Shown here: piece after piece, positions 3,696 through 29,308 of the stretch
Numbering within the stretch: the stretch's first letter is position 1
Layout of the letters: every line of letters starts with the position of its first letter
Source: Bacillota bacterium
GTDB lineage: Bacteria > Bacillota > Clostridia > Christensenellales > CAG-138
Direction of reading: 5' to 3'
NCBI GenBank assembly: GCA_016288175.1
Contig: JAEEYN010000222.1
Location: 1 to 38,141 of the forward strand
Length of the DNA stretch: 38,141 bases
Notes under the pieces: generated by a model
Seen by the model: only the letters and a program-made list of their open reading frames with translations
Told to the model about the DNA's origin: nothing
The model's database searches: none
Program-made: the position numbers and the translations under genes

Positions 3696-6600
3696 CTATT
3701 CCGCGCTGATCGTCCGGCGCATGATGAGCACGGCGTCGGTCGCGTTGACAAGCCCATCACCGTTCATGTCGCCATTGATAAGGCCCTGCTCGCTGATCAC
3801 AGCAAGATTCATCGAATAGCGCATCACGAGCAGCGCGTCGGTCGAGTTAACGACGCCGTCGCAGTTCACATCTCCGAGGAGCGTAACGGTCGGACCGTTT
3901 TCCTCATACTGCGCCGTCACCGTCATATCGTCTGTCACATTCGAGAAATCCATGTCCCAGCCGGTGAAAGTCCAGCCCTCGCGTTCTGGGTCCGCAGGCG
4001 CTTCCGCCGCATCGCCGTAGTTAACGGACTGAGTGGAAAGCACTGTGCCGTCCCAATCGGCGAATGTAACGGTATAGACATTGATCTGATAGACCGCGGT
4101 GACGGTCATATCCTCCGTTACGTTCGAGAAATCCCTATCCCAGCACGAGAATTTCCAGCCTTCACGGGAAGGCTCCTCCGGCGCCTCCGCAGAAGTTCCA
4201 TTCTCTACGGTCTGCGTTGAAAGAACGGTGCCGTCCCAATCGACGAAGGTTACGGTATAGTAAACCGGCAGTTCGATCAGCTTATACAGCCTTATTTCCG
4301 AAGGATTCTTCGAAGTTTCGTACTTACCGGTCGGCAGACTCTGCGAAATCGCCTTGAACTTCAAATAATAGAATCCGTCGCTGTCGATCTGGTTATTAAA
4401 TGAGCCATCGGTCCCGTAGAGCCACGCTACCGCAGTCATGGACGGATAAAGCACGCTGTTCAAATTGAGACCGAGATACTTGTTGTTGCCGACGTTTTGC
4501 CAGGAGTAGCCGTCATCAGCGTTCCCCGAGGGGACCCAGGTTATTGCGTCGAAATCAAGCTGCTGATCGATCGAGATCCTGTCATCCTCCATTATCATCA
4601 CGGCGACAGGCAGTATGTACTGATTATCCGAAACGGTCGTATTGCCAACAGCGTAGCCAAGCGTGCCGCGAACGGACGAATCGGCAACTAGGATGTATTT
4701 CCCGCCGGGTTCTACCGAGAACACTCGCTCGTAGCCTTCGAAATCACACACGGTCACCGAAGACGATGCGGTGATGATATCCTTCGTTGTAAGATTTGTT
4801 GCAGTAGCTGTAATGATCGCGGTACCCGACGCTATCGCATTTATCTGCGCGCCTCCTTCGGCGGCAGCGACCTGCACGACGGACGGATCGGAGCTTGACC
4901 ACTCGATCTCGTAATGATTGGCATTTGCAGGAACCGTATTAAGGTGCAGATCAGCCGTATCTCCCGCAAAGAGTTCAATATTTTCGGGCGAAAGCGTAAT
5001 CGATTCAAGATCGACGGGAAGCGAATTGCCGCCTTCTCCGGTCAGCTCGATAACATCGGAAGTGTTGCGGCCGTAGTCGCCGACCTTAACATAAACGGTC
5101 GAATGATCGCCGACGGAGAGCGTCATTTCGGTGGTCTTGCCTCTCTCGTGCTCGGTAATCGCCCGCTCTGCAAGCAGCGTTGTGCATTCCGCTTCCGCGT
5201 AAACGCCGATCCATGCGGCATAGTGATCGTCATGAACATTGACCCTCAGCGTTCCGCCGTCGACTTTCCAATAAGTGACGTCCGGAGCGGTGATATCGAC
5301 AGTCATCGGAAGCACGATCTCGCAGCATTCGTTTTCGGCGGGATCGAAGCCCTCGTAATCAAGATAATGGTAAAGCTTGAACACGACGTGCGCGCCTTCG
5401 GCAAGATCATCCGGCGCCCAGGATTCGAATTCGATCCAATCGGAGTTGTGGTGGAAGGTGCTTTCGGTATACTTCCAGGCTTTCGGCATGTTGATCAGAT
5501 CCTCGGAATAATAGACTTCCTCCGGGTCGTCCGCATTGTAGATCCTGAGTCCGCCTTCCCCGCCGTTTCGGATCAGTGCGTAAAGGACTTTGTCGATCCT
5601 GTCATAGTAATTATCACCGTTCGGTGAAAGGGTGCAGCGATCCGCCCACCAATCGGTTGTGGAGATATAGGGATTCGCGCCGAAAAGCATGAATTCATCG
5701 CCGCTGACAACGGAGCCGATCTCCGTCTGCACAGAATGGATGTTATAGTTGTTGACGCCCCGGATCTCATCAATATAGGTGTTCCTGTCAAATACGGAAG
5801 CTTTGCTCCAGCTGCCGTAGAAGCCGAGGAACGGGATAACGAGATCGACCGTTCCGTCAAGTACGACGTTGCCGTCGATATAGATCCCGTTCGGGAATTT
5901 CGAATCGAGTTCGCTCTTCAGGCTGCTGCTTAGCGTCACGGTGATGGTTACGCTCCGGGTGCTGTTCGCCGGAACCGTAAACGAGCCGCCGCCGCTGACG
6001 GTGCAGCTTGCAGTGATGTTCTGCGCGGTACCGCCCATAATCAAAGTGGATTGACCGTTGAGATCCTTCGACTTTGTATTCTCCGTCAGTACCGTAACGT
6101 TGGGGTTGAAGCTGAGCGCTGTCGAACCGAAGTTGACAACATTGAATGAAAGCGTGTAAACACCGGTCTTGTCGGGATCGTCGCCGAGCTCGAGTTTCGG
6201 ACGGATACAGTTGTCAACGGTGATATAGGCTTTCGTCGTGATCGCCTTTTCGAGGTCGATGATGCCTGCACCCTGTGTGCGCGGAGAAGTATTGCTGACA
6301 GGGTTTGCAGTGCACATCAGCAGGCGATTGATCATTTCGACTTTATCTTCGCCGGACAGGTTCGGCCATGTGACATTGACATAATTCGTAAGCAGAGCCA
6401 TCGCGCCGGCGACATGGGGGCTTGACATCGAAGTTCCCGACTTCTGGCTGTAACCGGTTGTTGAACCGTTCAATTCGGCGTCGGCCGGGGAATTGATATT
6501 TGCGCCGGGTGCTGTTACTTCCGGCTTTAGTTTCAAATCCGGAGTCGGCCCGTGGCTGGATGTTGCGACCATTGACGGGCTGTTCTTCTGGCAGTTCGCA

Positions 6601-7823
6601 ACGCAGAGCGAGCGCGTGTAGGTTCCCGGAGCGGATACAAGACCGTTGTCGGGGTTCATGGCAAGCGCATACCTGAACGCTGAGCCGTAGTACTGCTGGC
6701 CGATACCGGAGCCGCCGTTGCCCGCAGCGCAGGCAATATTCACGCCGTGCTGCGTCAGCAATTCACAAACCGCATCGAATTCCTCGCTTTCGGAAGTATA
6801 GCCGAGGTCGGTTCCGAGGCTCAGGTTGACAGAATCGACTTCGAGGTAAGCGCAATCCTCCAGAGCCGCAAAGATCATATCCATGCTTGCGCCTCCGCTT
6901 GGGCTGAATACCTGCATGATAACGAGCTGCGAATCCTTTGAAACGCCTGTGTAGCTGCTTCCGGAATAGTTGCCTGCGGCAATACCCGCAACATGGGAGC
7001 CGTGGTCCGAGCCGGCATAGCTGTGACTTACGTCGTTAGTGCCGTTCACATAGTTGAAGCGGAAGGGTATCTTCCCGCTGTAGTAAACGGCAGCGGCGTC
7101 CAGAGTGCCGTCTTCATATTTGCTTTCCGCATGAAGATCGTTGTTCGAAATCACGTTTTCAAGATACGCTGCATCTATCTTCGTGTCGGGAGGGACGATG
7201 CTGAATGCAACATGATCTACTACGCAGCCCGTGTCGATGATCGCAATAGCCGTGCCCTTTCCAGTATAACCGGCATTCCAGACATCGTTTGCGTTGATGA
7301 AGCCGACGGAAGTATCGAGCCTGTCCTCCTCGGTCTTATCAAGCACCGGTGCAGCATAAACCGGAGCTATAAAAACTTTCTCGACTTCCGGAAGCTCAGC
7401 GATCGCTTTTTTCATTCCATACGGAAGTTTTACAGCAAAGCCGTTGAACAGCAGCGTATAGCTGAAGCCGAGTTCCATTTGTGTTCCGTCGGGAAGCATG
7501 GAACCGATCTTATCAATAACGCGGTTCTGTTTGCCCTTCAGAACGGATGCCATATCGTCAGCTGACTTTGATTTAACGTCGCTGTATCGCGCGGCAACTG
7601 GAGCGCCTTTGAGTTTTACCATAAGGGTGACGATCTCGTCATCCGCAGGCGCGGGCGCTTCTTTTTCCGATGTGTCGATCCTCACTGCATCGGGGTTAAC
7701 AGGATCCTCATTGGCTGCTGCCGGTTTATCGATAAACGTATTTTCGGCAAGCTGCAGCGCGCCTATCGGTGCGGCCGCGGCAAGCATGATCAGCGCCAGG
7801 AAGATGCTGAGCAGTTTTTTCAT
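3696..7823 (-). CDS. Secreted S8 (subtilisin-like) serine peptidase with Big_2-like domain, two Listeria-Bacteroides (Flg_new) repeats and a C-terminal type-I dockerin
   Basis: Signal peptide MKKLLSIFLALIMLAAAAP. Catalytic triad motifs IIDTG, HGSHVAG and GTSMSSPHVAG. Big_2-like ITLSPENIELFAGDTADL...SSSDPSVVQV. Two YTVTF.DWDGTVLSTQ...EGW.F.GWD repeats. Dockerin DVNCDGVVNSTD...DMNGDGLVNATD. GGAGG RBS. Confidence 0.9.
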   Translation of the reverse strand: MKKLLSIFLALIMLAAAAPIGALQLAENTFIDKPAAANEDPVNPDAVRIDTSEKEAPAPADDEIVTLMVKLKGAPVAARYSDVKSKSADDMASVLKGKQNRVIDKIGSMLPDGTQMELGFSYTLLFNGFAVKLPYGMKKAIAELPEVEKVFIAPVYAAPVLDKTEEDRLDTSVGFINANDVWNAGYTGKGTAIAIIDTGCVVDHVAFSIVPPDTKIDAAYLENVISNNDLHAESKYEDGTLDAAAVYYSGKIPFRFNYVNGTNDVSHSYAGSDHGSHVAGIAAGNYSGSSYTGVSKDSQLVIMQVFSPSGGASMDMIFAALEDCAYLEVDSVNLSLGTDLGYTSESEEFDAVCELLTQHGVNIACAAGNGGSGIGQQYYGSAFRYALAMNPDNGLVSAPGTYTRSLCVANCQKNSPSMVATSSHGPTPDLKLKPEVTAPGANINSPADAELNGSTTGYSQKSGTSMSSPHVAGAMALLTNYVNVTWPNLSGEDKVEMINRLLMCTANPVSNTSPRTQGAGIIDLEKAITTKAYITVDNCIRPKLELGDDPDKTGVYTLSFNVVNFGSTALSFNPNVTVLTENTKSKDLNGQSTLIMGGTAQNITASCTVSGGGSFTVPANSTRSVTITVTLSSSLKSELDSKFPNGIYIDGNVVLDGTVDLVIPFLGFYGSWSKASVFDRNTYIDEIRGVNNYNIHSVQTEIGSVVSGDEFMLFGANPYISTTDWWADRCTLSPNGDNYYDRIDKVLYALIRNGGEGGLRIYNADDPEEVYYSEDLINMPKAWKYTESTFHHNSDWIEFESWAPDDLAEGAHVVFKLYHYLDYEGFDPAENECCEIVLPMTVDITAPDVTYWKVDGGTLRVNVHDDHYAAWIGVYAEAECTTLLAERAITEHERGKTTEMTLSVGDHSTVYVKVGDYGRNTSDVIELTGEGGNSLPVDLESITLSPENIELFAGDTADLHLNTVPANANHYEIEWSSSDPSVVQVAAAEGGAQINAIASGTAIITATATNLTTKDIITASSSVTVCDFEGYERVFSVEPGGKYILVADSSVRGTLGYAVGNTTVSDNQYILPVAVMIMEDDRISIDQQLDFDAITWVPSGNADDGYSWQNVGNNKYLGLNLNSVLYPSMTAVAWLYGTDGSFNNQIDSDGFYYLKFKAISQSLPTGKYETSKNPSEIRLYKLIELPVYYTVTFVDWDGTVLSTQTVENGTSAEAPEEPSREGWKFSCWDRDFSNVTEDMTVTAVYQINVYTVTFADWDGTVLSTQSVNYGDAAEAPADPEREGWTFTGWDMDFSNVTDDMTVTAQYEENGPTVTLLGDVNCDGVVNSTDALLVMRYSMNLAVISEQGLINGDMNGDGLVNATDAVLIMRRTISAE
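3891..4265 (-). repeat. In-frame tandem duplication (about 186-189 nt x2) encoding the two Flg_new repeats
   Basis: VYYTVTFVDWDGTVLSTQTVENG...TVTAVYQIN versus VYTVTFADWDGTVLSTQSVNYG...TVTAQYEENGP. Confidence 0.85.
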
Positions 7824-7975: not shown

Positions 7976-10228
7976 TCATCTTGCTATGTTGTTCCAGCTC
8001 TCAACCTCGCTGAACGGTATGTATTTGTCGTAACCTATGAGAACAACTTCCCCGTCGCTCAAAAGCACAGCCGTATTCCATGCGCTTGTCGCGATCGCAG
8101 TTACGCTCACGCCCTGCCTGTTCGCGCCTGAGACATCGATCTGGTCCCATGAATTATATCCGCAGGCCTCGACTTTTCCATCCTTTGTGACATAAACGAG
8201 GTGCCAGCCCTTGACGCAGATTGATGCGACGTCGTTATGACCGTAAAAATCCATCTGACCGTGGTTTAGATTGCCGATATAAAGCACGTTGCCGGAGACG
8301 TCAAGCGCTGTTGAGCCCCTTTCACCGGCGGAAACCTGAACGATATTCTTCCAGTCCCCGACAGAGCACCAGTCGCCTTCCTGGTTATAAATCGCGGCGA
8401 CCTTCCCCGAATCGAAAAGCACGAGCACATGAAACACGCCTACGGAAACGGCGACAGGCCGTCCGTTTTGATAGATATCCTCCGGGATCGAATACAAACC
8501 CGATTCGTCCTTATCGCCCGGACCTCCCGTAATATGAAGGTGGCCGGACTTGTCTATCGCGGCGCAAGCGCAGGCGTTTGCGGAAATGAACTCGATATCC
8601 TGCCATTCCGCGATCTCCGAAGCGATGACCCTGTTATTGCTTGTCGAATCGGTTCCTGCGAGCAGCACACGGCCATCGGATGTCAGACCGATCGCGAAAT
8701 ACCAGCCAGCGGCAACCCGAACAACGCCGTCCCAGTCGGCGACGCCGTCAGCGACCTTCTGATTAGTGCCGGAAACGACGACCGATCCGTCGTCAAGTAC
8801 AGCGATCGCGAATTTTTTGCCGAGATCGAAGCAATAAGAATAATATCGCATCGGGTCGACCTCCGGTTTCGGGATCAGCTCGGGCGGGGTCGTGGCTTCC
8901 GGTTCGTCGGTGGCTTGCGGCTGCGCGGGATCGGGCGTTTCCGTAACAGAACCGTTCGGTGGTATGGTCACATACTCAAAAGGCGTGTTTTCCGCATTTG
9001 CCGAACTGCTGCTGTTCTTTTGCCCGAGATTTTTGATCAGCATCACCGCGCCGAACACAAGCGCGCCGAGCGCAAGAGCACCGGCCAACAGCGCAAGCGC
9101 GGTCTTTGCTCCGCTGCGTTTCTTTGCGCCGCCGTCATTACCCGCTTTTTTCTCGTTATCTTTATCGAGCTCCCAATCCGAAAACCCCTTATCGTCCGCT
9201 TTCGGCATTGCGGGAATGATCGGGGAATCATCATTACCGGCAGCGGGTCGCTTCCCCGGGTTTGGAGGTTGTGCCGCAAGCGCTGCAATATCGAGTGTGC
9301 CGTCACCCGCTGCGATCAGCGCACGCTTCATCCCTGCGGCGCTTCTGAATCGGCTGCGCGCGTCGAACGCACATGCTTTACCGAGCACGGCGTTCAATTC
9401 TTTCGATGCATTCGCCGCGGGAGGCAGCGATTCTCCCCCGAACCGTCTGTCGAGTGCTTTTTTGATTTCCCCGGCGTCATTCTCACTTCCTTCCGGCAAA
9501 AACGGCGGACGGCTGCCGTTCATCATCCGGTAAAGCACAAGGCCCAGCGAGTAAAGGTCGGAAGCAGCGCTGCGTTCCCGGCCGTTTTGCGCTTCCGGCG
9601 CGAGGTAATCCGGTGAGTCGCCATTCGCAAAAATGCATGCGGTGTCTCCCGGCGTCTTTTCCGTTCCGAGATCGCCGAGTTTGAAATTGCCGCTGACATC
9701 CGCAAAGATATTGTCCGGCGTAATGTCGCCGTGAACGATGCCTCGCTTTTCGAACTCCTCAAGCGCTGTGCAGATATCGGTTCCAAGCTTTATGACTTCG
9801 CTCTCTTCGAGCGAGGAACCTTCCGCATACTTCGTGAGCGGCGTCAGGAACTCCGTCAGCATCACGATCGCCCAGCCAAGCGACTGCTGTTTTTTCAGGC
9901 AGCGATACTCGCGGACCTCCGCCATATTCGACTTCCCGCCGAGCGACTGTATCTGCTTGACCTGTCGCAGATACTTCTTCGCGACCGCTTCATAATAGGC
10001 GCGAACATCTATCCCGTTTCCGTAAGCGGAACGCAGTTCTTCGATCTCGCTCTCGCTTTTCGGGATCTCGATGATCTTCACAGCAGCATAGTCGTCGACC
10101 GTCGTTTCGCCTTCGGTTTTCTTTCGGACAGCGCGATAGATTTCGCCGGATGAACCCGAACAGATCCGTTCGCCGAGTTCATAATCCGGCCAGATTTTCC
10201 GGATGTGCTGCAAGAGCGCTTCCTGCAT
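7976..10228 (-). CDS. Membrane Hanks-type kinase-like protein (atypical, non-RD) with 7-repeat RCC1-like propeller ectodomain
   Basis: Kinase motifs read AVK, HGDITPDN (9710-9733), DLG and APE. One TM helix (ALALLAGALALGALVFGAVMLI), a Pro/Thr-rich linker and seven ...AG....A..L..DG.V...G repeats. ATG at 10228 is preceded by GAGGTGA; the track start GTG 10237 is an alternative. Confidence 0.8.
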   Translation of the reverse strand: MQEALLQHIRKIWPDYELGERICSGSSGEIYRAVRKKTEGETTVDDYAAVKIIEIPKSESEIEELRSAYGNGIDVRAYYEAVAKKYLRQVKQIQSLGGKSNMAEVREYRCLKKQQSLGWAIVMLTEFLTPLTKYAEGSSLEESEVIKLGTDICTALEEFEKRGIVHGDITPDNIFADVSGNFKLGDLGTEKTPGDTACIFANGDSPDYLAPEAQNGRERSAASDLYSLGLVLYRMMNGSRPPFLPEGSENDAGEIKKALDRRFGGESLPPAANASKELNAVLGKACAFDARSRFRSAAGMKRALIAAGDGTLDIAALAAQPPNPGKRPAAGNDDSPIIPAMPKADDKGFSDWELDKDNEKKAGNDGGAKKRSGAKTALALLAGALALGALVFGAVMLIKNLGQKNSSSSANAENTPFEYVTIPPNGSVTETPDPAQPQATDEPEATTPPELIPKPEVDPMRYYSYCFDLGKKFAIAVLDDGSVVVSGTNQKVADGVADWDGVVRVAAGWYFAIGLTSDGRVLLAGTDSTSNNRVIASEIAEWQDIEFISANACACAAIDKSGHLHITGGPGDKDESGLYSIPEDIYQNGRPVAVSVGVFHVLVLFDSGKVAAIYNQEGDWCSVGDWKNIVQVSAGERGSTALDVSGNVLYIGNLNHGQMDFYGHNDVASICVKGWHLVYVTKDGKVEACGYNSWDQIDVSGANRQGVSVTAIATSAWNTAVLLSDGEVVLIGYDKYIPFSEVESWNNIAR

Positions 10229-10233
10229 GAGAC

Positions 10234-12501
10234 TCACCTCATTCTGACGATATTATGCCAATTCAATGCGCCGCTGAAGCCGTTGATCGTGTTCTGGTTG
10301 CCGATGAATGCGACCGAACCGTCGCTGAACAGGGCTGCGGAGACCCAGAGCGAACCTGATACTGCGACGACATGCTTATTGCCGTAACTGTTCCACTGGG
10401 AAACATTGCACTGTCCGTATGTGTTGTCACCGGTGCAGCCGACGTTTCCGTTCCTGTCGATGTAAACGAAATGATAGCCCTTCGACGCGATGCAGGCGAT
10501 GTTAGTAAGGTTGCGGACAAGAGTCTGGTCATGCTTGTATCCGCCGGTATAAACTACCGTGCCGTTTGCGCGAAGCCCGACGGAGCCGCCCTGACAGGCC
10601 GTTATCGCAACGATGCCGCTCCAGTTATAAACATCGCACCTTTCGCCGGCTTTGCCCTCCTCTCGGCCGAAAGCGGCGCACGTACCGTCCGCGAAAAGGA
10701 TCAGAACATGGTCCCTGCCGGCGGAGACCGAAACGGCTTGCGCGCCGGAGGCTGACCTTATCGAGTACGGGAAGGAATAACTGAGCAGCTCTTCGCTCGG
10801 ATCATGCTTTTCGGGATGGCCCGCAACGAAAACGTTGCCGTAGCTGTCCAATGCGATCAATGTCCTTGCCTGAGCGGATATCTGGACGATATTGCGCCAG
10901 CTGTAGACATAATTCAAGTCGATGTATTCGGAGTCGCTGCCCGCGATCACGACAGTGCCGTCGCGCCTGAGGCCTGCGGAGAAATAGTATCCTGCGGCGA
11001 CCTGAACGATATCGTTCCAGCCGCTGACATTGCATTTTCCGTTATTGTTGTTGCCTTCCGCAACAGCATGACCGTTGCTCAGCAGACCGATGACATGATC
11101 CTGACCGACGTCAAAGCCCCAGCAGTAATACTGACTTTGCTCGAATGCGGGAACGGACGTCGGTGCATCCGTAGGCTGCGGCGTTGCAGGCACAGCTGTC
11201 GGGTCAGGCGTCGGTTCATCCGTCGGCGCGGGGGTATAATACGGTTCCGTCGGGTATCCCGTCGGGGCAGGAGTCGGAACTTCGGGAACTGCCGTAGCTG
11301 CCCCCGGGTTCGGTTCCGGAGTTTTGGCGGTATTGTCGCCGCTTTGCGCGGTCTGATCCGGCTCAGCTGTCGCAGTGGGATCTCCGGAATTTCCCGCAAA
11401 GAAGTTTTTATAAGCAAACCACCCGCCGACGCCGAGAAGCGCAAGGGCGAGAATTATCAGGATCGCGATCAAAGCTTTTTTATTTCCGCCGTTCTGCTTC
11501 CCCGTTTCAGCCGGAACGGGCTGAACAGGTCCCTGCTGCATCGGCGGGACCGGCGCTGCAGGCACGCCGATAAAGTTCCTGTCCATGATCGCAGCCTTCA
11601 TTTCGCCCGCGCTTTGGAAACGGTTTGCTGGGTTCGGGTCGCATGCCTTCAGGACGACAGCACCGAGATGCGGAGAGGCACCGTCGGGCATCGGAAGCTT
11701 CGCACCGCCGAGACGGGCTTTACGGGCTTCGCGCACAGCGGCGGTATCGTTTTCGCGTCCTCTCGCGACGAAGGGGAACCTGTTCCCATTGAGAAGTTTA
11801 TAAAGCAGGATGCCAAGCGCATAGGTATCCGATGTTCGGTCGCGCCTGCCGCCCGAGGACGACTCCGGCGGAAGATAGTTCCAAACATCCTCTTTCTTTT
11901 CATTGCCGCAAAGCAGTTCGACTGCCTGTTCAGTGCCGGGAAAAGCGACCTTGTAATTGCCGTTCACATCGACAAAGATGCTGTCCTCGCAGATTTTTCC
12001 GTAAACCCTGTTCCCGCTTTCGCATATTTCGAGGAAGGATGCGATATCGCTTCCGAGCTTAACGGCTTCGTTTTCGTCGATGGATTCCTGACCTTCGAGA
12101 TAATCGGCGAGCGGAGTCAGCCGCTCCGTCAGCGTGCAGATGACCCATCCGGATGAATCTTTATTTTTGAAAGTGCGGCAATCGCGGATGCGTGCTGCGC
12201 CGTTCGTTCCGTTCATACCGCGTATCGCGTTCAGCTGGTTCACGTAATCCGCAGCCATGGACTCGAATGCCGATTCCATTTGTTCCGCGCTGCCGTATTT
12301 CCCGGCGAGCGCCGCGCTGTCCGCGCTTTCTGGCGGGATCGTGACGACTCTTACAGATGCAAGGTCATCAAGGCCGGGCGCCGATGCAGAGCTGTTTCGA
12401 ACAGCGCCGAACATTTCGGCACATTTTCCGTTTTGGATGCTGTTTCCGAGTTGGTATTCGGGCCATGTGTTTTGAATTATCCGTAATATCTCCTGCTGCA
12501 T
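10234..12501 (-). CDS. Membrane pseudokinase with 7-repeat RCC1-like propeller ectodomain (paralog of the downstream gene)
   Basis: Same architecture as its neighbour, but the catalytic positions read SVR (for VAIK), YGKICEDS (11980-12003, for HRDxKxxN), AFPG (for DFG) and PPE (for APE). TM helix ALIAILIILALALLGVGGWFAY. AAGAGGA RBS. Confidence 0.8.
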   Translation of the reverse strand: MQQEILRIIQNTWPEYQLGNSIQNGKCAEMFGAVRNSSASAPGLDDLASVRVVTIPPESADSAALAGKYGSAEQMESAFESMAADYVNQLNAIRGMNGTNGAARIRDCRTFKNKDSSGWVICTLTERLTPLADYLEGQESIDENEAVKLGSDIASFLEICESGNRVYGKICEDSIFVDVNGNYKVAFPGTEQAVELLCGNEKKEDVWNYLPPESSSGGRRDRTSDTYALGILLYKLLNGNRFPFVARGRENDTAAVREARKARLGGAKLPMPDGASPHLGAVVLKACDPNPANRFQSAGEMKAAIMDRNFIGVPAAPVPPMQQGPVQPVPAETGKQNGGNKKALIAILIILALALLGVGGWFAYKNFFAGNSGDPTATAEPDQTAQSGDNTAKTPEPNPGAATAVPEVPTPAPTGYPTEPYYTPAPTDEPTPDPTAVPATPQPTDAPTSVPAFEQSQYYCWGFDVGQDHVIGLLSNGHAVAEGNNNNGKCNVSGWNDIVQVAAGYYFSAGLRRDGTVVIAGSDSEYIDLNYVYSWRNIVQISAQARTLIALDSYGNVFVAGHPEKHDPSEELLSYSFPYSIRSASGAQAVSVSAGRDHVLILFADGTCAAFGREEGKAGERCDVYNWSGIVAITACQGGSVGLRANGTVVYTGGYKHDQTLVRNLTNIACIASKGYHFVYIDRNGNVGCTGDNTYGQCNVSQWNSYGNKHVVAVSGSLWVSAALFSDGSVAFIGNQNTINGFSGALNWHNIVRMR

Positions 12502-12629: not shown

Positions 12630-12659
12630 ATTTTATCATAATCGGGGAATTCATGTCAA
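12630..12659 (-). promoter_or_regulatory. Sigma-A-type promoter for the pseudokinase/kinase pair
   Basis: Minus strand reads TTGACA-18 nt-TAAAAT, leaving a leader of about 120 nt before the ATG at 12501. Confidence 0.6.
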
Positions 12660-12753: not shown

Positions 12754-13884
12754 TCAGCCTGCTGCGACCTGGCGCATGATGAGAATTGCGTCGGTTGTGT
12801 TGACGCCGCCCCGGCCGTTCATGTCGGCGTTGACAAGGCCCTGTTCGGTGATTTCCGCAAGACCCATGGAGTAACGCATAACGAGCAGAGCGTCGGAGGA
12901 ATTCACAGCGCCGTTGCAGTCCGCGTCGCCGAGAAGAGTGACTTCGGGACCGACGGGCGTTTCGCTGAATTTCGCGATAAAAGTCGAGGGAAGCTGTTCA
13001 TCCGCCGACGGCATCCAATTCGCATCCTCCGAAAGCAGGTTGTCCTCTCCGTCATACCAACCGATGAACTCTTCGCCTTCATCCGCTGTCGCAATATGCC
13101 ACATGTCGGGTCTGTCATCCAAAACATAATCGTAGCATGCAACAGTGCCGTTTCCGACCGCAATAATGCTTTCAAAGCCAAACTTATCTGCGTTCACTTT
13201 GATTTCCTTGAGGGGATTGTCCAGGCAGCCGATTTGAGTCAGATCAGTGCAGAGTGATACATCCAGCACCGTCAGATTATTGTTGCTGCATTCCAGGCAC
13301 GGTATGCTCGGGCATCCGCTTACGTCAAGGAAGGACAGTTGGTTATCAGAGACGTCAATGCCGAAATTCAGCGCGGCATGATCACCGCTGAGATCGAGCG
13401 ATTCGATCGCGCACATATTGCAGGTCAGTTCCTGAATGAGGCTGCTCCCCGTTACGTAAAGCGAAGTCAGCGTTTCACACATGCTGCAGTCGAGGCTGAT
13501 CAAAGCCGGGCAATTCGATGCATCTACAGACGTCAGGTTATTGCTTGCGCAATAAAGCATATCCAACTCGGTGAAGCCGCTGACATCCAGATCTCCGACA
13601 AGCTCTTTGTTCGGGATGGAGATCATGTTCACATGACCGCCGACCCAATAGATGTCGCAGCCCCAGGAATTCGGATCTTCCGGATCGACCGTATCTCAGA
13701 GCTTCGATGCATTGGTCACGCCGTCTGCGTCTTCGAGTCGGAGAAATGCTGCCATCTTGTTGTACTCGTATTCGTCATAGCTTTCCGGTACTTCGCGGTG
13801 CATTTCTGCGATCGCAAAGACAGGAACGACCGCAAGCACCATCATCAGCGCGATGATTGAGCTTAGGATCCGTTTTACTTTCAG
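12754..13884 (-). pseudogene. Leucine-rich-repeat + dockerin secreted protein, interrupted by an in-frame TGA (13696-13698) and lacking an ATG start
   Basis: The frame upstream of the 292-aa ORF encodes a signal peptide (KVKRILSSIIALMMVLAVVPVFAIAE) and runs in the same frame into TGA. The LRR units include LTSVDASNCPALISLDCSMCETLTSL. The dockerin reads DADCNGAVNSSD...DMNGRGGVNTTD. The only start-like codon after the GGAG is a CTG at 13884. Confidence 0.6.
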
Positions 13885-18562: not shown

Positions 18563-18615
18563 AGTTTGAAGGATATATTTATTTTCACAAGTATTGCACA
18601 GACGGAGTGTTGTGT

Positions 18616-20442
18616 ATGGAAAGCATTGATCTAAAGAACATTTGGCCTGAATGGAAGATCGAAGGAGCGCCTCTCGGCAGAGGTTCATACGGTACCGTTT
18701 ATAAAGCTGTCCGAAACAACTACGGTATCGAGACCGTATCGGCGATCAAGGTTATCTCCATCCCGCGGGATGAATACGAGGTCGATTCGCTTGTTGCCGA
18801 AGGTTATACGATCGACGATTCCAAATCCGTTTACCGCAGCGTTGTCGATGAATGCATCAATGAGATCAGCATCATGGATTCATTCAAAGGCACCACGAAC
18901 ATCGTCAGCGTTGAGGATTACAAGGTCGTTGAAAAGAAGGACCGCTTCGGATGGGATATCTACATCCGGATGGAGCTTCTGACTCCGCTCACAAAACGCC
19001 TTGCCGAAGGTGAATTGACGGAGAAGGAAACGGCGAAGCTTGGCATCGATATCTGCACCGCGCTTGAGCTTTGCCACAGCAAAAACGTTATCCACCGCGA
19101 TATCAAACCGCAGAATATTTTCGTCAACGATTATAGCAGCTATAAACTCGGCGATTTCGGGATCGCCAGGTCCGTTGACAGCGTTTCAAAGGGGCTTTCG
19201 CTCCGGGGCACGCTCAGCTACATAGCGCCCGAGGTCGAACGCAGCGAAGAATACGATAAAAGTGTCGACATCTATTCGCTCGGGCTTGTGCTTTATTTCT
19301 GTCTGAATAAGCGGAGGCTGCCTTTCCTTGATACGAGCAAGAAGCTCCTCAGCCCGACCGAACGCGATACGGCAAATACTCGCCGTCTTTCCGGCGAACC
19401 TCTTCCCCCGCCCTGCAGCGCGTCGCCGCTCATGGCGGACATCATCCTCTGCGCCTGCGATCCCGATCCGAAGCAGCGTTTCAGTACCGCGTCGGCGATG
19501 AAGACCGCGCTGCAGGCCGTAATCGCGCAGCAGGAAGCTCCTGCCTGTCCCGCCAAGCCCGCTGCAAAAGTTCCCGCCGGAGTTAATGCTTCTGCTGCAC
19601 CGAAGCCGACGCCCGCACCGGCAGCAAACCGGGTTTCCCCCGCCTCGCTGCAGCGAACTGTCAATTTATCCACCGCGACGCAGCAAACTGCTCAAACTTT
19701 CGTGCCGCAGCAGACACCTGTCTATACCGCCGCGCCGCAGCCAGTTCAAAACAGGCAAAAGAAAAGATCCAAACTCCCGCTTATTATCGGATTACTGCTC
19801 GCCCTCTGCCTGCTCATCGGCGCTGCGCTGATAATTATTCCGAAGCTTATAGGCGGTTCCGGTGATACTTCCGCCAATTCCGATAATCCCGGTATTAGCT
19901 CCGTCAGCACCTCACCCGGCGAAACAGCAGCACCCGGTGAAGCGCAGAATACGCCGATACCTACTGCAGCGGTCAAGCTCTCCGACACCAATGCTCTGTA
20001 CAATCTCAGCCCGGGATCCTATAAAACCGGAGATGATGAGCATGCGTCCTTCGAGATGGGTTCAAGCACCGTGGACGACGGCTTCGCGATCTTCTGCAAA
20101 GATGCGGGATACTGGAATACTTACGGTTATTTTTCAATTGATCTTGACCGAAAGTATTCTTCCGTCACTTTTGATATCGGCCACGTCAACGGCACCAATA
20201 TGGGAGATATCTTTTTAACGGTTCATCTTGATGATACGCAGCTTGGATACGATCAGATCGAAGGGCTCGCGGAAGACGGCAAGATCAGTATGCATACCGC
20301 TTCCCAAACAATTACAATACCCGTTCAGGGCGTAAAGACGCTGTTTATTGAGCTTTCTACACCCAGGCACTACACATCCAACAAGAATGCGCTGGATCCG
20401 TATTACGGCTTCGCGAATTTTTACCTTACTCCGAAAGCATAA
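18616..20442 (+). CDS. Ser/Thr protein kinase (canonical Hanks type), single-pass membrane, with a beta-sandwich-like (NPCBM/galactose-binding-like?) ectodomain
   Basis: GRGSYGTVY, SAIKV, HRDIKPQN (19093-19116), DFG and APE are all intact. TM helix LPLIIGLLLALCLLIGAALIII. The C-terminal 150 aa is non-repetitive. ACGGAG RBS. Confidence 0.9.
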   Translation: MESIDLKNIWPEWKIEGAPLGRGSYGTVYKAVRNNYGIETVSAIKVISIPRDEYEVDSLVAEGYTIDDSKSVYRSVVDECINEISIMDSFKGTTNIVSVEDYKVVEKKDRFGWDIYIRMELLTPLTKRLAEGELTEKETAKLGIDICTALELCHSKNVIHRDIKPQNIFVNDYSSYKLGDFGIARSVDSVSKGLSLRGTLSYIAPEVERSEEYDKSVDIYSLGLVLYFCLNKRRLPFLDTSKKLLSPTERDTANTRRLSGEPLPPPCSASPLMADIILCACDPDPKQRFSTASAMKTALQAVIAQQEAPACPAKPAAKVPAGVNASAAPKPTPAPAANRVSPASLQRTVNLSTATQQTAQTFVPQQTPVYTAAPQPVQNRQKKRSKLPLIIGLLLALCLLIGAALIIIPKLIGGSGDTSANSDNPGISSVSTSPGETAAPGEAQNTPIPTAAVKLSDTNALYNLSPGSYKTGDDEHASFEMGSSTVDDGFAIFCKDAGYWNTYGYFSIDLDRKYSSVTFDIGHVNGTNMGDIFLTVHLDDTQLGYDQIEGLAEDGKISMHTASQTITIPVQGVKTLFIELSTPRHYTSNKNALDPYYGFANFYLTPKA

Positions 20443-20474: not shown

Positions 20475-21761
20475 ATGTCCGAAGAATTTGAAAACAAGCT
20501 TGATTTTACGGAAAACGCCCGGGAAGCGCTCTATTCCGCCGTGGACAGCGAGGGTTTTATTGATAACGACGCGGAGATGATCTATGATGTTATCTCAAAG
20601 CGTCTGAAATTCATTCCTTTCGGCGAATACCTGAAGCGCTACATCTACCGCAGCGCAGGCATTGAAGGACCGTTTGAAGAAGTCGGGCTCGATATCTACC
20701 GCCGGATCATCAGGGATTCCTTTGCAGACACGGATACCCCGCCCTCCTTTGAGCCGACTTCGGCGAAACTCAGCGCGCTTTCGAAGAACTGGCTGACTCA
20801 GCAGTCCGTCAGCCGCAAAGTCGTGTTTCTTCTCGGTTTCGGTCTCGGAATGCCCGAAAACGATGTCGATCGTTTCCTTACAAAAGCGCTCCGGGAGCGC
20901 GGTTTCAACGCGAAGGATCCTTTCGAGATCATCTGCTGGCACTGTTTCAGGAAAGGCTACGGCTATCCGAAATTTAACGAACTTTGGAATTCGTTTCTGA
21001 AAGCTTCGCCGCAGGGTTCCGCAGGGCGGCATCTGCTCGACGAATTGACAGTTGCCGTGCGCGGTAAAGTCGATACGCTCAGCGAGGATGATGCGCTCAT
21101 TGCTTTTGCATCGCAGTTCAAAACGAAGGATAACCGGCCCAAGCTTTCCGTTTCAACACGCAAATGCTTTGACGGGCTTTTCGCCGAGGCAAAGCGCATC
21201 GTTGCGGAGATCTATACCCGAGGCGAAGAGGAGCGCGCGCGGATCGAGGCCGCCAAAGTCGAAGACAGGCTGTTGAGGGATGACCGTGTTTCCGACAGCG
21301 AACGCAATGAAAGGATCCGGCGGATCAGGGCGGAAGCGCGTATCTATAAGCCCGAGGATATCACCGAAAGCGATCTTGAGCACATCATCTCTTCCGCGAT
21401 CCCCGTTGACCGCCATGGCAACCTGACTCCGAGCAAGGCTTCCGCGCTCTCCGGCCGTTTCGACGGCAAACGCTTCAGCCGCCAGCATATCAACGATATC
21501 CTCGAAGGCAACACCGAAGCTACGCGTTTCGACATAATAACGCTGAATTTCTTCATCATGTCGCAGTCGCTTGACCAGCACCCAAATAAGCGCGAGCGGT
21601 ACTTTTCATTCATCAATTCGACAAACAGGCTTCTCGAAGGCTGCGGTCTCGGCGAGCTCTATATTTCGAATCCCTATGAATGTTTCGTACTCATGTGCCT
21701 GCTCTCCGAAGATCCGCTCGGCACCTATGCCGACGTTTGGGAGCTTTCGTACGAAAACTGA
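20475..21761 (+). CDS. Hypothetical protein (428 aa), co-transcribed with the kinase
   Basis: 32-nt gap after the kinase stop with an AAAGGA RBS and no terminator between the genes. A terminator follows at 21775. I recognise no motif. Confidence 0.6.
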   Translation: MSEEFENKLDFTENAREALYSAVDSEGFIDNDAEMIYDVISKRLKFIPFGEYLKRYIYRSAGIEGPFEEVGLDIYRRIIRDSFADTDTPPSFEPTSAKLSALSKNWLTQQSVSRKVVFLLGFGLGMPENDVDRFLTKALRERGFNAKDPFEIICWHCFRKGYGYPKFNELWNSFLKASPQGSAGRHLLDELTVAVRGKVDTLSEDDALIAFASQFKTKDNRPKLSVSTRKCFDGLFAEAKRIVAEIYTRGEEERARIEAAKVEDRLLRDDRVSDSERNERIRRIRAEARIYKPEDITESDLEHIISSAIPVDRHGNLTPSKASALSGRFDGKRFSRQHINDILEGNTEATRFDIITLNFFIMSQSLDQHPNKRERYFSFINSTNRLLEGCGLGELYISNPYECFVLMCLLSEDPLGTYADVWELSYEN

Positions 21762-25951: not shown

Positions 25952-26437
25952 TCATATTAATGACCTCCCCGACATTTCATAAGCCAGAAGCAATAACCTT
26001 ATGTTTTCGTCGACACGTTGTTCTTGCCACTTATTGTGCAAAGGTTTCATATTATCTTCAATTTCTTTACGCACCTCGCTTGGCAAGCTGTCGAGAATAC
26101 TCTTATAGTTGTCTAGTATTTTTACTTCTTCCCCATACAAACGCTCATTTGTTTTTGGGGTTGGCAAGTTATCGAGGAAACTCTTGCAGTTGTCTAGAAT
26201 CTTAACTTCTTTACTATGTAGATGCTCATCTGTTTTTTCATTAAGATCAGACTTATCAATACACCAGTCCGGGACAATTGAAGTTCTGAACGATGCCAAC
26301 CCATTATAATAATGATACTTCACAGTAAAGTACACTCCGTTTTTCACATACAGAAACTCGTAATCGCTTATATCGTCGTAGTATGTCGGGGCGTGCCATT
26401 CGTATACGGTACGAATAAATGTTGATACTCTTTCCAC
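25952..26437 (-). CDS. Hypothetical protein in an AT-rich cassette, with internal 27-aa duplication
   Basis: GGAGG RBS 8 nt before the GTG at 26437. The two repeat units are LHSKEVKILDNCKSFLDNLP and LYGEEVKILDNYKSILDSLP. Confidence 0.55.
   Translation of the reverse strand: MERVSTFIRTVYEWHAPTYYDDISDYEFLYVKNGVYFTVKYHYYNGLASFRTSIVPDWCIDKSDLNEKTDEHLHSKEVKILDNCKSFLDNLPTPKTNERLYGEEVKILDNYKSILDSLPSEVRKEIEDNMKPLHNKWQEQRVDENIRLLLLAYEMSGRSLI
26080..26241 (-). repeat. 81-bp in-frame tandem duplication (x2)
   Basis: TTGGCAAG...GTTGTCTAG... units start at 26080 and 26161. Confidence 0.8.
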
Positions 26438-26496
26438 AGATTATTCCTCCGGTGTTATTATCAACTTAATCTATTACTGAACTTATAACCGAGTTA

Positions 26497-26733
26497 TCAT
26501 CGCTGCTGTCTCAGCGCCGTTTTCATGGCCATCCGAATAAGGCCTATACCTTTGATCACTCGGTCATTATCATTCACCGCAATCCAGAACATATCCCCAC
26601 GGTCAAAATAGTGGGCTTTTATATCGAGCAGATCCTCGTTGAGCCTTGGTATTCTTCCGAGCGCATCCTTGGCCTGTAGAACCATGAAGATCATATCGTC
26701 TCTGTACTTGTCTTCGTATAACTTGATTTCCAT
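26497..26733 (-). CDS. Half-length GNAT fragment (N-terminal half), likely truncated
   Basis: 78 aa. MEIKLYEDKYRDDM...FWIAVNDNDRVIKGIGLIR stops before the acetyl-CoA-binding motif. The start lies 2 nt after the NUDIX stop. Confidence 0.45.
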   Translation of the reverse strand: MEIKLYEDKYRDDMIFMVLQAKDALGRIPRLNEDLLDIKAHYFDRGDMFWIAVNDNDRVIKGIGLIRMAMKTALRQQR

Positions 26734-26735
26734 GA

Positions 26736-27692
26736 TTACTCAAACTCCGTTCTTAAGGTAAAGTTCTCCGGCAGGTTGGCAATCTCTGTTTTCAGGAATA
26801 CTGGATAGAAGTATTCGTACTTCAGCCGCTCATAATCCAGCCATTCAAATTCGTGAGTATGCTGCCGCTCATGGAGCGTAAACTTCTCGCCCTTTTCCAG
26901 CAGACCTGTATCCAATACATCAAGCAGGAAATAGATGCAAAGCTCATGATAATTCAGTTTGTCTACGTCTTCAGTGAAGAAACCCTGATTTAGCCAGAGA
27001 GGACGAATGATATGAGGCGTGATACCCAGCTCCTCTTCGACTTCTCTGACAATAGCGCATTCCGCGGTCTCGCCCATTTTTGCTCTGCCTCCGGGCAGAT
27101 AATAATACGGTGATCGTTCGTCATGCATGGCAAGAATTTTGCCGTCGTGGATCATGACTCCGCAGACTCGATAGTTGAATTTGCTGTTGCTGATGACATA
27201 TGAAACATCAGACGGCTTCAGCTCATCAATGAACTTTTGCATACGCTCCGTCACCAATTCTTCTTTTTTCATTGAAATCAATTCATCCTTGGTGACCCAT
27301 TTGTATGCTGATGTTTCTCCCTCTTGTAAAGCAATACTGGTTTTATCGCAGTCTGTCACACAAAGAAATTCAACGTAAATCGTGTCATGACTGACAACAC
27401 GCCCGACCTCCGCCAGTTCTTCTGATTCGACTCCGGTTTCTTCCCGCAACTCTCTGACGGCACAAGCAAGAGGGGTTTCTCCCTTCAAGGCTGAACCTCC
27501 GGCCGTTGCTTCCCACATGCCACCGAAATGTTTCCTGCTGTCACGCTGCATTAAAAGATATGTGCCGTCTATATGTTTGACGATTATGTCGCTTACGAGA
27601 TGATAGAATCCGTCTGGAATCGCTTCTCCACGGATCAAAGTCATTCCTTCGATCTTCTCAAATTCTTTATTATAAGCATCCCAGACTTCCAT
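26736..27692 (-). CDS. Tandem-domain NUDIX hydrolase
   Basis: Two complete NUDIX boxes, GSALKGETPLACAVRELREETGV and GRAKMGETAECAIVREVEEELGI. GGAGG RBS. Confidence 0.85.
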   Translation of the reverse strand: MEVWDAYNKEFEKIEGMTLIRGEAIPDGFYHLVSDIIVKHIDGTYLLMQRDSRKHFGGMWEATAGGSALKGETPLACAVRELREETGVESEELAEVGRVVSHDTIYVEFLCVTDCDKTSIALQEGETSAYKWVTKDELISMKKEELVTERMQKFIDELKPSDVSYVISNSKFNYRVCGVMIHDGKILAMHDERSPYYYLPGGRAKMGETAECAIVREVEEELGITPHIIRPLWLNQGFFTEDVDKLNYHELCIYFLLDVLDTGLLEKGEKFTLHERQHTHEFEWLDYERLKYEYFYPVFLKTEIANLPENFTLRTEFE

Positions 27693-27741
27693 TTAATCCT
27701 CCTATATCCTCGGACATCAAAACTACAGTTACAGTCCGATT

Positions 27742-27807
27742 TGACAACAATCCGATAGTCTCAACCTCACAAAAAGGCTCCAATGACAACAGACCGATAG
27801 TCTCAAC
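27742..27807. repeat. Two 24-bp direct repeats (22/24 identical), 42-bp period
   Basis: TGACAACAATCCGATAGTCTCAAC (27742-27765) and TGACAACAGACCGATAGTCTCAAC (27784-27807). Confidence 0.85.
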
Positions 27808-27958
27808 AACCGATTTTTACCCTCGATAGCGAAACAAGAGTTACAGCAACGGATTTCCTCGTTTTCGCCCTTTCGCTCTGTGGAAACTTATCTACGCTCC
27901 CGTTTATAGCCAAAGTCCGAAAAAGCCCTTGTTTCAAGCCGTTTTCCCGTTATCTTCC

Positions 27959-29308
27959 TCATTTTCTGGACAGCGAAACGACGCACTCCACGTGAAACGA
28001 ATTCGCGAACATATCATAAGGCTGCACGCTTTCGATCGCGTACCCTGCGTCAGCAAGGATGCGGCAGTCGCGGGCAAGGGTCGCGGGATTACATGAAATA
28101 TAGGCGACCCTCGGGACGCCGCTTGTTATGATCGCGTCCAGCGCTTCCCGCATCGCGCCCTTCCGCGGCGGATCGAGCAGGAGCTTATCTATCTTATGTC
28201 CGCTTTTGACGAGCTTCGGCAGGACGTTTTCTGCAGCGCCGCAGATGAATTCCGCGTTTTCGATCCCGTTGCGCGCCGCGTTGCGCATTGCGTCTTCGAT
28301 CGCCTGCGGAACGTACTCGATGCCGAGTACGGATCGCGCTCTTTTCGCCATCATCAGCGAGATCGTGCCGATACCGCAGTAAAGGTCGATCACGTCGTCG
28401 TTTTCGGAAAGCCCCAGCGCATCGATCGCGGCTTTATAGAGGTTCGGCGTCTGCGCGCTGTTGACCTGCAGGAAGCTCTCCGCGCCGACGGAAAAGCTTA
28501 AATCTCCAATTTTTTCGGCAATTATGCCGCTTCCGTAGATGACGCGGCTCCTCCTGCCGAGGATCAAAGCCGTGCGGTCCGGATTCTCATTTTGGATGAT
28601 CCCCGAAAGACCGGGCAGCGCTTTTTTAAGCGTTTCGATAAGCTCGTTTTCAAAGTGAAGTCCGCCTTTTGTAACGATCACTGCCATCATCTCACCCGTG
28701 GAAGCGGTCCGGACCATCAGATGCCGCAGCTCTCCCCTGCCCGTTCTTTCATCATAGGCGGTAATGCCGTGTGCATTCGCCCAATCCGTCACGGCACGGA
28801 GCGCCGCGATCGCTTCCGGTTTTTCGATCAGGCAGTCTGCAATCGGAACAACGGTGTGGCTTTTTTCGGAAAGGCAGCCGGAAACGATCTTTCCGTTTCT
28901 TTCGGAAAAGGTGAAAACGCCTTTATTGCGGTAGCGCGCAATTTCCGGCGACGGAACGCAGGCTTCGACGCGGATCCCTTCAAGCCCGCCGATGCGTTCG
29001 AGCGCATCCCTAACACGCCGTGTCTTGAAAGCGAGCTGAGCGCTGTAATCCATGTGCATAAGTCCGCATCCGCCGCAGCTTCTGTAATACGGGCATGGCG
29101 GTATGCAGCGCTCCGGCGCTTCGGAAAGGAGCTTTTCAAGGCGCGCGACGGCGAACCGCTTTTCGGTTTTTATAACTTCGGCGACGACTTTTTCGCCCGG
29201 CAGCGCACCCGGGACAAAGACCGCGATATTATCCGCGCGGCCGACGCCCTGGCCTTCCGAGCCGAAGGCAGTAATGGATATCTCGATTTTTTCTCCGATT
29301 TTCAACAT
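27959..29308 (-). CDS. rlmD: 23S rRNA (uracil-C5)-methyltransferase, RumA/RlmD family
   Basis: N-terminal TRAM domain, a 4-Cys cluster (CPYYRSCGGCGLMHM), SAM motif DLYCGIGTISL and catalytic ISCNPATLARD. Confidence 0.85.
   Translation of the reverse strand: MLKIGEKIEISITAFGSEGQGVGRADNIAVFVPGALPGEKVVAEVIKTEKRFAVARLEKLLSEAPERCIPPCPYYRSCGGCGLMHMDYSAQLAFKTRRVRDALERIGGLEGIRVEACVPSPEIARYRNKGVFTFSERNGKIVSGCLSEKSHTVVPIADCLIEKPEAIAALRAVTDWANAHGITAYDERTGRGELRHLMVRTASTGEMMAVIVTKGGLHFENELIETLKKALPGLSGIIQNENPDRTALILGRRSRVIYGSGIIAEKIGDLSFSVGAESFLQVNSAQTPNLYKAAIDALGLSENDDVIDLYCGIGTISLMMAKRARSVLGIEYVPQAIEDAMRNAARNGIENAEFICGAAENVLPKLVKSGHKIDKLLLDPPRKGAMREALDAIITSGVPRVAYISCNPATLARDCRILADAGYAIESVQPYDMFANSFHVECVVSLSRK

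Follow-up and report, generated by a model that had tools for sequence, protein, structure and literature searches.

A tandem pair of propeller-bearing membrane receptors in gut Clostridia combines a predicted pseudokinase with a partly degraded kinase domain

Results

The two-gene operon

The window analyzed here is a 38,141-nucleotide stretch (contig JAEEYN010000222.1, assembly GCA_016288175.1) from a bacterium of the Clostridia, and its main subject is a pair of co-directional genes on the minus strand. Gene A (10234-12501) encodes a predicted membrane pseudokinase of 755 aa that carries a propeller ectodomain. Gene B (7976-10228), in a different reading frame, encodes a kinase-like membrane receptor, likewise with a propeller, of 750 aa when read from the ATG at 10228; its open reading frame (ORF) is also open from a GTG (7976-10237, 753 aa). 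About 125 nt upstream of the A start lies a sigma-70-type promoter (12630-12659, minus strand), TTGACA-18-TAAAAT with an extended -10 TG, in which 11 of 12 positions are matched. An intrinsic terminator, read from the sequence on the same strand at 7970-7945, is formed by the hairpin CCGGGGAACGCTCCCCGG (CCGGGGA-ACGC-TCCCCGG) and the T-run TTTTTTATT. At the coupling junction (10226-10240, minus strand, GAGGTGAgtctcATG), which reads agaatgAGGTGAgtctcATG, the stop codon of A (TGA, 10236-10234) is located within the GAGGTGA Shine-Dalgarno (SD) sequence of B, and a spacer of 5 nt separates this SD from the B start codon (10228-10226).

These signals are shared with the orthologous loci. In the sister species (locus L004), the AGGTGA-5 nt-ATG junction is present with different spacer letters, the pair is preceded by identical promoter hexamers and spacing, and a comparable hairpin and T-run follow the B ortholog. 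The junction is identical in strain L017 of the window species, and the A-B order together with the 5-nt junction is common to L001, L002, L004 and L017, which represent both species. Taken together, these features support the view of A and B as a single isolated, co-expressed unit running from one promoter to one terminator, as a preliminary description had proposed from the window alone on the basis of the same promoter, stop-in-SD junction and terminator. Since B starts 5 nt past the A stop and within the same SD, both proteins would be made together, probably in similar amounts through termination-reinitiation. A structured RNA masking the B SD was discarded, as the fold of the 111-nt junction (z 0.28 in the window and 1.06 in L004) is no better than that of shuffled sequences. 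Rfam at gathering thresholds gave no match anywhere in the window, including the ~125-nt 5' untranslated region of A, and comparison by eye of this region between the two species revealed no visible conservation.

The pair has very few homologs, and all copies found come from five assemblies of two species. The window species is represented by further strains that are 99% identical (P0001, P0025, locus L017), and the sister species by a metagenome-assembled genome labeled Christensenella sp. UBA1214 (GCA_002309375.1) and by two Logan assemblies. A scan of 185,579 species genomes returned only one pair-bearing genome, and a scan of JGI metagenomes no pair-bearing locus. Word-indexed protein searches retrieved the same two species plus P0027 (locus L003), a more distant relative that has a single copy at the syntenic position, with canonical K, E, HRD, K, N and DFG; most hits of a search with the ectodomain profile were short RCC1_2 proteins of a generic kind. 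Every assembly seen has both A and B, with intact ORFs (750-755 aa), and the tandem is kept in the sole sister species found.

Shared architecture of the two receptors

The two proteins can be aligned over their full length (33% identity, E 3e-124) and show the same domain order, which identifies them as full-length paralogs of one architecture and bears out the earlier view of a pair of paralogs. In both, the N-terminal ~300 residues match the Pfam profiles Pkinase/PK_Tyr_Ser-Thr and the C-terminal ~300 residues match RCC1_2/WD40_RLD. A single strongly hydrophobic helix is found in each protein, at residues 343-364 of A (11410-11475, minus strand; ALIAILIILALALLGVGGWFAY, mean Kyte-Doolittle 2.7) and 377-398 of B (9035-9100, minus strand), followed by a low-complexity linker. 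In A this Pro/Thr-rich linker spans residues 365-454, N-terminal to the propeller, and is 41% Pro+Thr.

The solved structures nearest to both kinase domains are of the PknB type. Catalytic-site equivalences are the same in HMMER alignments to PknB, in a MAFFT alignment that includes family members and in an alignment of 213 kinase domains anchored on an HMM. The reference within the window is K3 (18607-20442, plus strand), a canonical paralogous membrane kinase that reads SAIK / HRDIKPQN / DFG / APE and scores 146.8 bits against Pkinase; K3 and the family share a GxGxxG Gly-loop, the β3 Lys, the αC Glu, an HRDIKPxN catalytic loop and DFG. The motif readings and coordinates of the preliminary description proved correct in the three alignments. 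A further change had been overlooked: the αC Glu, present in K3 and the family, is replaced by Gln in both A (VNQLNAI) and B (LRQVKQI).

Gene A encodes a predicted pseudokinase

The kinase-like domain of A (residues 1-306; 11584-12501, minus strand) keeps the fold with all of its catalytic residues replaced. Its Gly-loop reads QNGKCA, the β3 Lys is Arg (K51R, in ASVR), the αC Glu is Gln, HRDxKxxN has become YGKICEDS (11980-12003), DFG has become FPG (in AFPG), and the segment corresponding to APE reads LPPE. As a result, A lacks the three residues by which pseudokinases are defined (VAIK-Lys, HRD-Asp and DFG-Asp), as well as the αC Glu and the loop Asn. The bilobal fold is still recognizable: the domain scores 34.0 against PK_Tyr_Ser-Thr (cut-off 23.1) and 30.8 against Pkinase, just below the cut-off of 31.7; its AlphaFold2 model has a predicted local distance difference test (pLDDT) score of 88 and a predicted TM-score (pTM) of 0.87; and the best Foldseek matches of the model are to PknB (E 1e-15, TM-score 0.62-0.77).

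The ortholog of the sister species is equally dead, reading YGNICEDS and AAPG. At the HRD-Asp position, the Lys of the window is replaced by Asn in one strain and in the ortholog of the sister species. Even strains that are 99% identical differ at former catalytic positions (K169N, Q89L). Between the window and L017, the A kinase domain shows eight non-synonymous and seven synonymous codon differences and the A ectodomain none and five, a contrast that is suggestive but rests on too few sites. Ratios of non-synonymous to synonymous substitution rates (dN/dS) were estimated by the Nei-Gojobori method between window and L004 orthologs. For A, the approximate values were 0.17 (dN 0.165) for the kinase-like domain, 0.149 (dN 0.132) for its C-lobe and 0.13 (dN 0.112) for the ectodomain. 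Judged by these sequences, A is a true pseudokinase, fully dead, with a folded domain under purifying selection; the upstream protein had already been described as dead, and this holds for both species and for the strains.

The kinase domain of gene B is eroding differently in two species

The catalytic site in the kinase domain of B (residues 1-306; 9311-10228, minus strand) is atypical and partly degraded. The domain keeps a CSGSSG Gly-loop, the β3 Lys (AAVK), the Asp of HGD and the loop Asn (HGDITPDN, 9710-9733), the Asp of DLG, and LAPE. Three lesions are found in the window protein, namely αC E to Q, R to G in HRD (HGD) and K to T in the catalytic loop; none of the VAIK-Lys, HRD-Asp and DFG-Asp triad is missing. 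The sister-species ortholog presents a different picture: αC Glu, RD Arg and loop Lys are all retained, and the catalytic loop, HRGIKPDN, has Gly in place of the catalytic Asp. An assembly error was ruled out for this HRG, since it is identical in three independent assemblies (L001, L002 and L004).

Nine normally invariant positions were scored (Lys, Glu, H-R-D, loop Lys, Asn, and the D and G of DFG), and four of them differ between the B orthologs, compared with 32% of residues over the whole kinase domain. This indicates that the catalytic sites of B are no longer specially protected. By parsimony against the single-copy P0027, the B ancestor at the species split would have been canonical apart from DLG, and was probably active at that time; three changes (E to Q, R to G, K to T) would afterwards have arisen in the window lineage and one (D to G), independently, in the sister lineage. 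The independent appearance of different lesions in two lineages suggests that phosphotransfer by B is not maintained by selection.

The approximate dN/dS values of B were 0.235 (dN 0.216) for the kinase domain, 0.265 (dN 0.258) for its C-lobe and 0.11 (dN 0.138) for the ectodomain, which means that the C-lobe of B evolves about twice as fast as that of A (dN 0.258 and 0.132, respectively). These ratios point to both A and B being maintained by selection, the dead domain included.

Propeller ectodomains and phylogeny

The extracellular propellers comprise residues 455-755 of A (10237-11139, minus strand), with seven RCC1_2/BLIP-II-like repeats, and residues 459-750 of B (7979-8854, minus strand), predicted to be seven-bladed. 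RCC1_2 scores are 65.5 bits for A and 60.1 bits for B (cut-off 22), and WD40_RLD scores are 70.5 and 55.2, under the cut-off of 150. The AlphaFold2 model of B residues 455-750 (pLDDT 91, pTM 0.90) forms seven three-stranded blades. A Foldseek search of the PDB with this model ranked BLIP-II first (E 1e-16, TM-score 0.70-0.77, 22-24% identity), followed by UVR8, by the ACR4/CR4 ectodomains (TM-score 0.65-0.73) and by the RCC1-like domains of RCC1 and HERC2, all with probability 1.00. The A ectodomain aligns repeat by repeat with the modeled B ectodomain. As far as the model goes, the ectodomains are thus confirmed as seven-bladed RCC1_2 propellers of the compact BLIP-II type, which refines the seven-repeat RCC1-like propeller suggested earlier. 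In an exhaustive search, proteins combining a kinase with RCC1_2 proved abundant in metagenomes, and hence the architecture of A and B is not in itself novel.

In a neighbor-joining tree of kinase domains, A, B and P0027 group together with 84% bootstrap support, and the branch leading to A is long. The ectodomain tree pairs B with P0027 at 100% and leaves A without a firm position, leaning to P0155 at 50% bootstrap. P0155 (L012-L014) belongs to the same ectodomain clade and is a kinase-less membrane propeller of 477 aa with a Gly/Pro-rich cytoplasmic tail. Another member of this clade, P0215 (L011), is a lone, independently dead pseudokinase that reads ASLRVV and has neither HRD nor DFG, and the more distant RCC1_2 protein P0183 reads FCN/DPG. 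These relatives indicate that catalysis has been lost repeatedly among propeller-linked kinases.

Gene order and the canonical kinase K3

The locus differs from those of canonical relatives in its gene content. In L003 the order is short-chain dehydrogenase/reductase (SDR), acyltransferase, one canonical kinase-propeller gene, α/β-hydrolase, a transporter gene with two forkhead-associated domains and an ATP-binding cassette (FHA-FHA-ABC), and S8 subtilase. In the window and L004 it is SDR, leucine-rich repeat (LRR)-dockerin, in some cases acyltransferase, A, B and S8 subtilase. The subtilase of L003 is the ortholog of that of the window (66% identity), which A-B directly adjoins in both the window and L004. 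In L015/L016, a PP2C gene and a K3-like kinase gene precede a canonical propeller kinase that is a more distant relative (P0146), an α/β-hydrolase and an FHA-FHA-ABC gene. FHA-ABC adjacency is therefore found in the canonical relatives L003 and L015/L016 and is lacking for the pair in the window and L004; tblastn detected no FHA-ABC homolog in the 38-kb window or L004, with generic ABC ATPase matches only, and the window holds no α/β-hydrolase homolog either.

K3 lies ~6 kb from the A start and is kept near the pair in L004, and in L015/L016 its homolog is located directly upstream of the canonical propeller kinase, beside the PP2C gene.

Discussion

A model for the pair and its alternatives

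The findings presented here lead us to propose, with a probability of roughly 0.45, that a tandem-duplicated receptor kinase has turned into a co-expressed pseudokinase or weak-kinase sensor pair that probably acts via scaffolding. According to this model, a single-pass receptor Ser/Thr kinase with a BLIP-II/RCC1_2-type propeller would have been duplicated in tandem to give A and B, and the present function of the pair would be independent of phosphotransfer by B. Both proteins would be putative sensors of extracellular ligands, with cytoplasmic domains that are non-catalytic or have residual activity and that may serve as scaffolds or allosteric switches, most likely in a putative hetero-oligomer. 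The signal would then be handed to another component, for which K3 is the best candidate catalytic partner because it is near the pair in both species and has a homolog beside the canonical propeller kinase and PP2C in L015/L016. The change from kinase to pseudokinase would coincide with the loss of the α/β-hydrolase and FHA-FHA-ABC genes at the locus.

A bolder version of this model, which we consider unlikely, holds that a two-receptor hetero-oligomer, assembled via the propellers, transmembrane helices or kinase-like domains, senses an extracellular ligand and allosterically switches K3 while phosphorylating nothing itself, a dead/live pair having become dead/dead after loss of its FHA-ABC target. 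If true, switching of K3 by A/B would constitute a prokaryotic counterpart of HER3- or CRR-type signaling.

Several observations weigh against the proposed scaffolding pair. The Lys/Asp/Asn/Asp core is intact in B of the window, and the HGDITPDN loop of this protein is similar to HGDLTTSN in the active kinase PRPK/Bud32 (PMC7864929). Since an HGD..T..N arrangement occurs in an active enzyme (PMC7864929), the lost Glu, Arg and Lys of B are no proof of inactivity, and by analogy the window protein may still be capable of autophosphorylation, ATP hydrolysis or weak activity. In addition, the independent decay of B is deduced from one species comparison and one outgroup (two species, five assemblies), and dS values of 0.9-1.3 are near saturation, which makes the dN/dS values approximate and, if anything, overstated. 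Regarding the proposed partner and the gene losses, K3 is no more than a neighbor of the pair, on the opposite strand and outside the operon, and in L003 the 6.8 kb preceding the canonical gene contain no K3. Genes for the hydrolase and the FHA-ABC transporter could be present at another site in this genome.

The retained core of B is also the main strength of the interpretation given in the preliminary description, an obligate heteromer in which B is an atypical non-RD catalytic subunit and A an allosteric activator or substrate scaffold. The β3 Lys, catalytic Asp, Asn and DLG Asp of the window protein would suit such a subunit, HGD loops are present in active PRPK (PMC7864929) and in active Bub1, where the loop reads HGDIKPDN (PMC2192030), the adjacency and the stop-in-SD coupling are conserved, and the ancestral B, by parsimony, was canonical except for DLG. 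Nevertheless, the sister-species B lacks the catalytic Asp in all three assemblies, the window B has also lost the αC Glu and the catalytic-loop Lys, and the C-lobe of B outpaces that of its dead partner in evolution. The dead/live pair thus stands as far as the dead A and the K/D/N/D core of the window B are concerned; as regards B being a conserved live partner, it is not supported, given the HRG of the sister species and the three lesions of the window. We regard this heteromer as the main rival, though a rather improbable one. Slightly more doubtful is the view that A and B are independent receptors for different ligands, with the operon and its junction serving co-expression only. The divergence of their ectodomains (37% identity between A and B, compared with 80-83% between orthologs and 83% for the A ortholog pair) is in line with this notion, as are the lone relatives, P0215 with no kinase gene adjoining and the kinase-less P0155, and the ectodomain tree, in which A leans to P0155 instead of grouping with B and P0027. 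Conversely, the 5-nt stop-start junction has been kept in both species despite a changed spacer, both genes occur together in every assembly seen, and a stand-alone dead pseudokinase would still need a partner for its output.

It might finally be argued that the two genes are redundant duplicates, functionless since the loss of the FHA-ABC/hydrolase module and decaying toward pseudogenes. The erosion of catalytic residues in both copies, the variation of former catalytic positions between 99%-identical strains (K169N, Q89L) and the absence of the neighboring module from the window would all be expected in such a scenario. However, ORFs of 750-755 aa have stayed intact in five assemblies of two species at dS ~1, dN/dS is 0.11-0.24 across the folded domains, and conservation extends to the promoter, SD junction and terminator, which renders mere decay very improbable.

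Relation to known systems

The propeller of M. tuberculosis PknD is of the six-bladed NHL type, and PknD is catalytically active and is not known to have a dead paralog as partner. The earlier statement that no bacterial kinase with a propeller ectodomain had been characterized has to be abandoned in view of this protein, a Hanks kinase with one transmembrane helix and a C-terminal extracellular β-propeller (PMC1847690, PMC3322341). A further mycobacterial kinase, PknF, regulates the FHA-ABC transporter Rv1747 encoded in the same operon (PMC3138270). The canonical relatives of A and B (L003, L015/L016) resemble PknF-Rv1747 in having a kinase gene beside an FHA-FHA-ABC transporter gene; PknF lacks a propeller, and the window pair, unlike PknF-Rv1747, has no adjoining FHA-ABC gene.

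The nearest functional analogy for A and B appears to be offered by plants. Like A and B, the receptors ACR4/CR4 of the CRINKLY4 family cross the membrane once and combine a cytoplasmic kinase domain with a compact BLIP-II-like propeller of seven blades; BLIP-II is also the top structural neighbor of ACR4 (bioRxiv 10.1101/2020.08.10.245050), and the kinase-dead paralogs CRR1/CRR2 bind the intracellular domain of ACR4 (PMC4355418). In contrast to ACR4, A and B have the kinase at the N-terminus and the propeller at the C-terminus, which is the usual bacterial layout, and have neither blade disulfides nor a cysteine-rich domain. Moreover, the would-be active partner B is itself degenerating, unlike its counterpart in the ACR4-CRR system. 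An identity of only 12-14% with ACR4/CR4 suggests convergence or very distant homology of the propellers, and we treat ACR4/CRR as an analogy, not as a sign of family membership. BLIP-II of Streptomyces exfoliatus (PDB 1JTD, 3QI0) shares with the B ectodomain seven three-stranded blades of ~40 residues, but is a soluble secreted inhibitor without kinase or membrane anchor.

With respect to bacterial pseudokinases, recent surveys describe seven families, and the Hanks-type pseudokinases reported include MviN/ActPs3, EssB/YukC, DYD, CP1, DLHK and GLW; they keep the kinase fold, have the VAIK Lys, HRD Asp and/or DFG Asp substituted, and are presumed to be scaffolds or regulators (bioRxiv 10.1101/2025.01.12.632604; PMC12599244). 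In term searches, neither of these two surveys gave a hit for propeller ectodomains, tandem dead/live pairs or heterodimers. A resembles DYD-type pseudokinases in its K to R change and the loss of the αC Glu, and additionally lacks HRD and DFG. The text descriptions of ActPs1-3, CP1, DYD, DLHK and GLW include no propellers or gut-Clostridia origin, and on phylogenetic grounds A appears to derive recently from a canonical gut-Clostridia kinase family, not from an old pseudokinase family.

Experimental work on bacterial pseudokinases is acknowledged to be almost lacking (PMC12599244). Known families are mostly actinobacterial and of old origin; the A/B locus would represent a young, traceable case of the passage from kinase to pseudokinase. 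It provides a natural series, with a canonical single copy in one relative and two species in which one copy is dead and the other eroding differently, the folds being preserved. This series could be used to ask why bacterial receptor pseudokinases persist and whether allosteric signaling by receptor pairs, as in plants and animals, operates here too. With hosts that are uncultured gut Clostridia represented by metagenomes only, practical consequences are limited.

Additional features of the locus

The kinase domain of B falls within a large, unnamed family of gut-Clostridia kinases (P0028-P0108), nearly all of them metagenomic and unannotated. Its members are characterized by a WPEW/WPDY motif in an N-terminal helix and by an insert of ~25 residues between β3 and αC, and their ectodomains are very diverse (OmpA, SPOR, NPCBM, LRR, Sel1, FMN_bind). 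An assignment of the pair to anti-phage systems was rejected: the NCBIfam models MADS6/PglW scored 14-78 bits against cut-offs of 460-990, which reflects generic kinase similarity.

On one side of the operon lies the gene for an S8 subtilase of 1375 aa with Big_2, Flg_new and type I dockerin domains (3696-7823, minus strand) and on the other that for a 292-aa LRR protein with a type I dockerin (12754-13632, minus strand), both kept beside the pair in L004. Dockerin proteins on both sides suggest that this organism has a cohesin-dockerin system at its cell surface. An acyltransferase gene (PF01553; 6646-7509 in L004, 237-1100 in L002) lies upstream of gene A or of the single kinase gene in the sister species and L003, next to the LRR-dockerin gene in the former and to the SDR gene in the latter; it is absent between 12501 and 12754 of the window and in strain L017.

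The α/β-hydrolase located 3' of the canonical and lone relatives is secreted or lipoprotein-like. Its start overlaps the end of the kinase gene in L003, L011 and L016, and FHA-FHA-ABC follows in L003, L015 and L016; these downstream genes occupy 9133-12690 in L003, 10469-14078 in L015 and 3135-4238 in L011.

K3 has an extracellular tail of ~185 aa without Pfam match. Its listed start is a GTG, and an ATG three codons downstream (MESIDLKNIWPEW) looks the likelier start. The gene directly after K3 (20475-21761, plus strand), in the same direction, encodes a 428-aa protein without Pfam or NCBIfam match.

The window otherwise corresponds to an ordinary Clostridia chromosome, encoding DnaE, WhiA, RapZ and MurB. 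Positions 26001-28000 have a GC content of 0.43, compared with 0.50-0.57 elsewhere, and hold a gene for a 318-aa double-NUDIX protein (26736-27692) and short ORFs; this segment may be acquired DNA.

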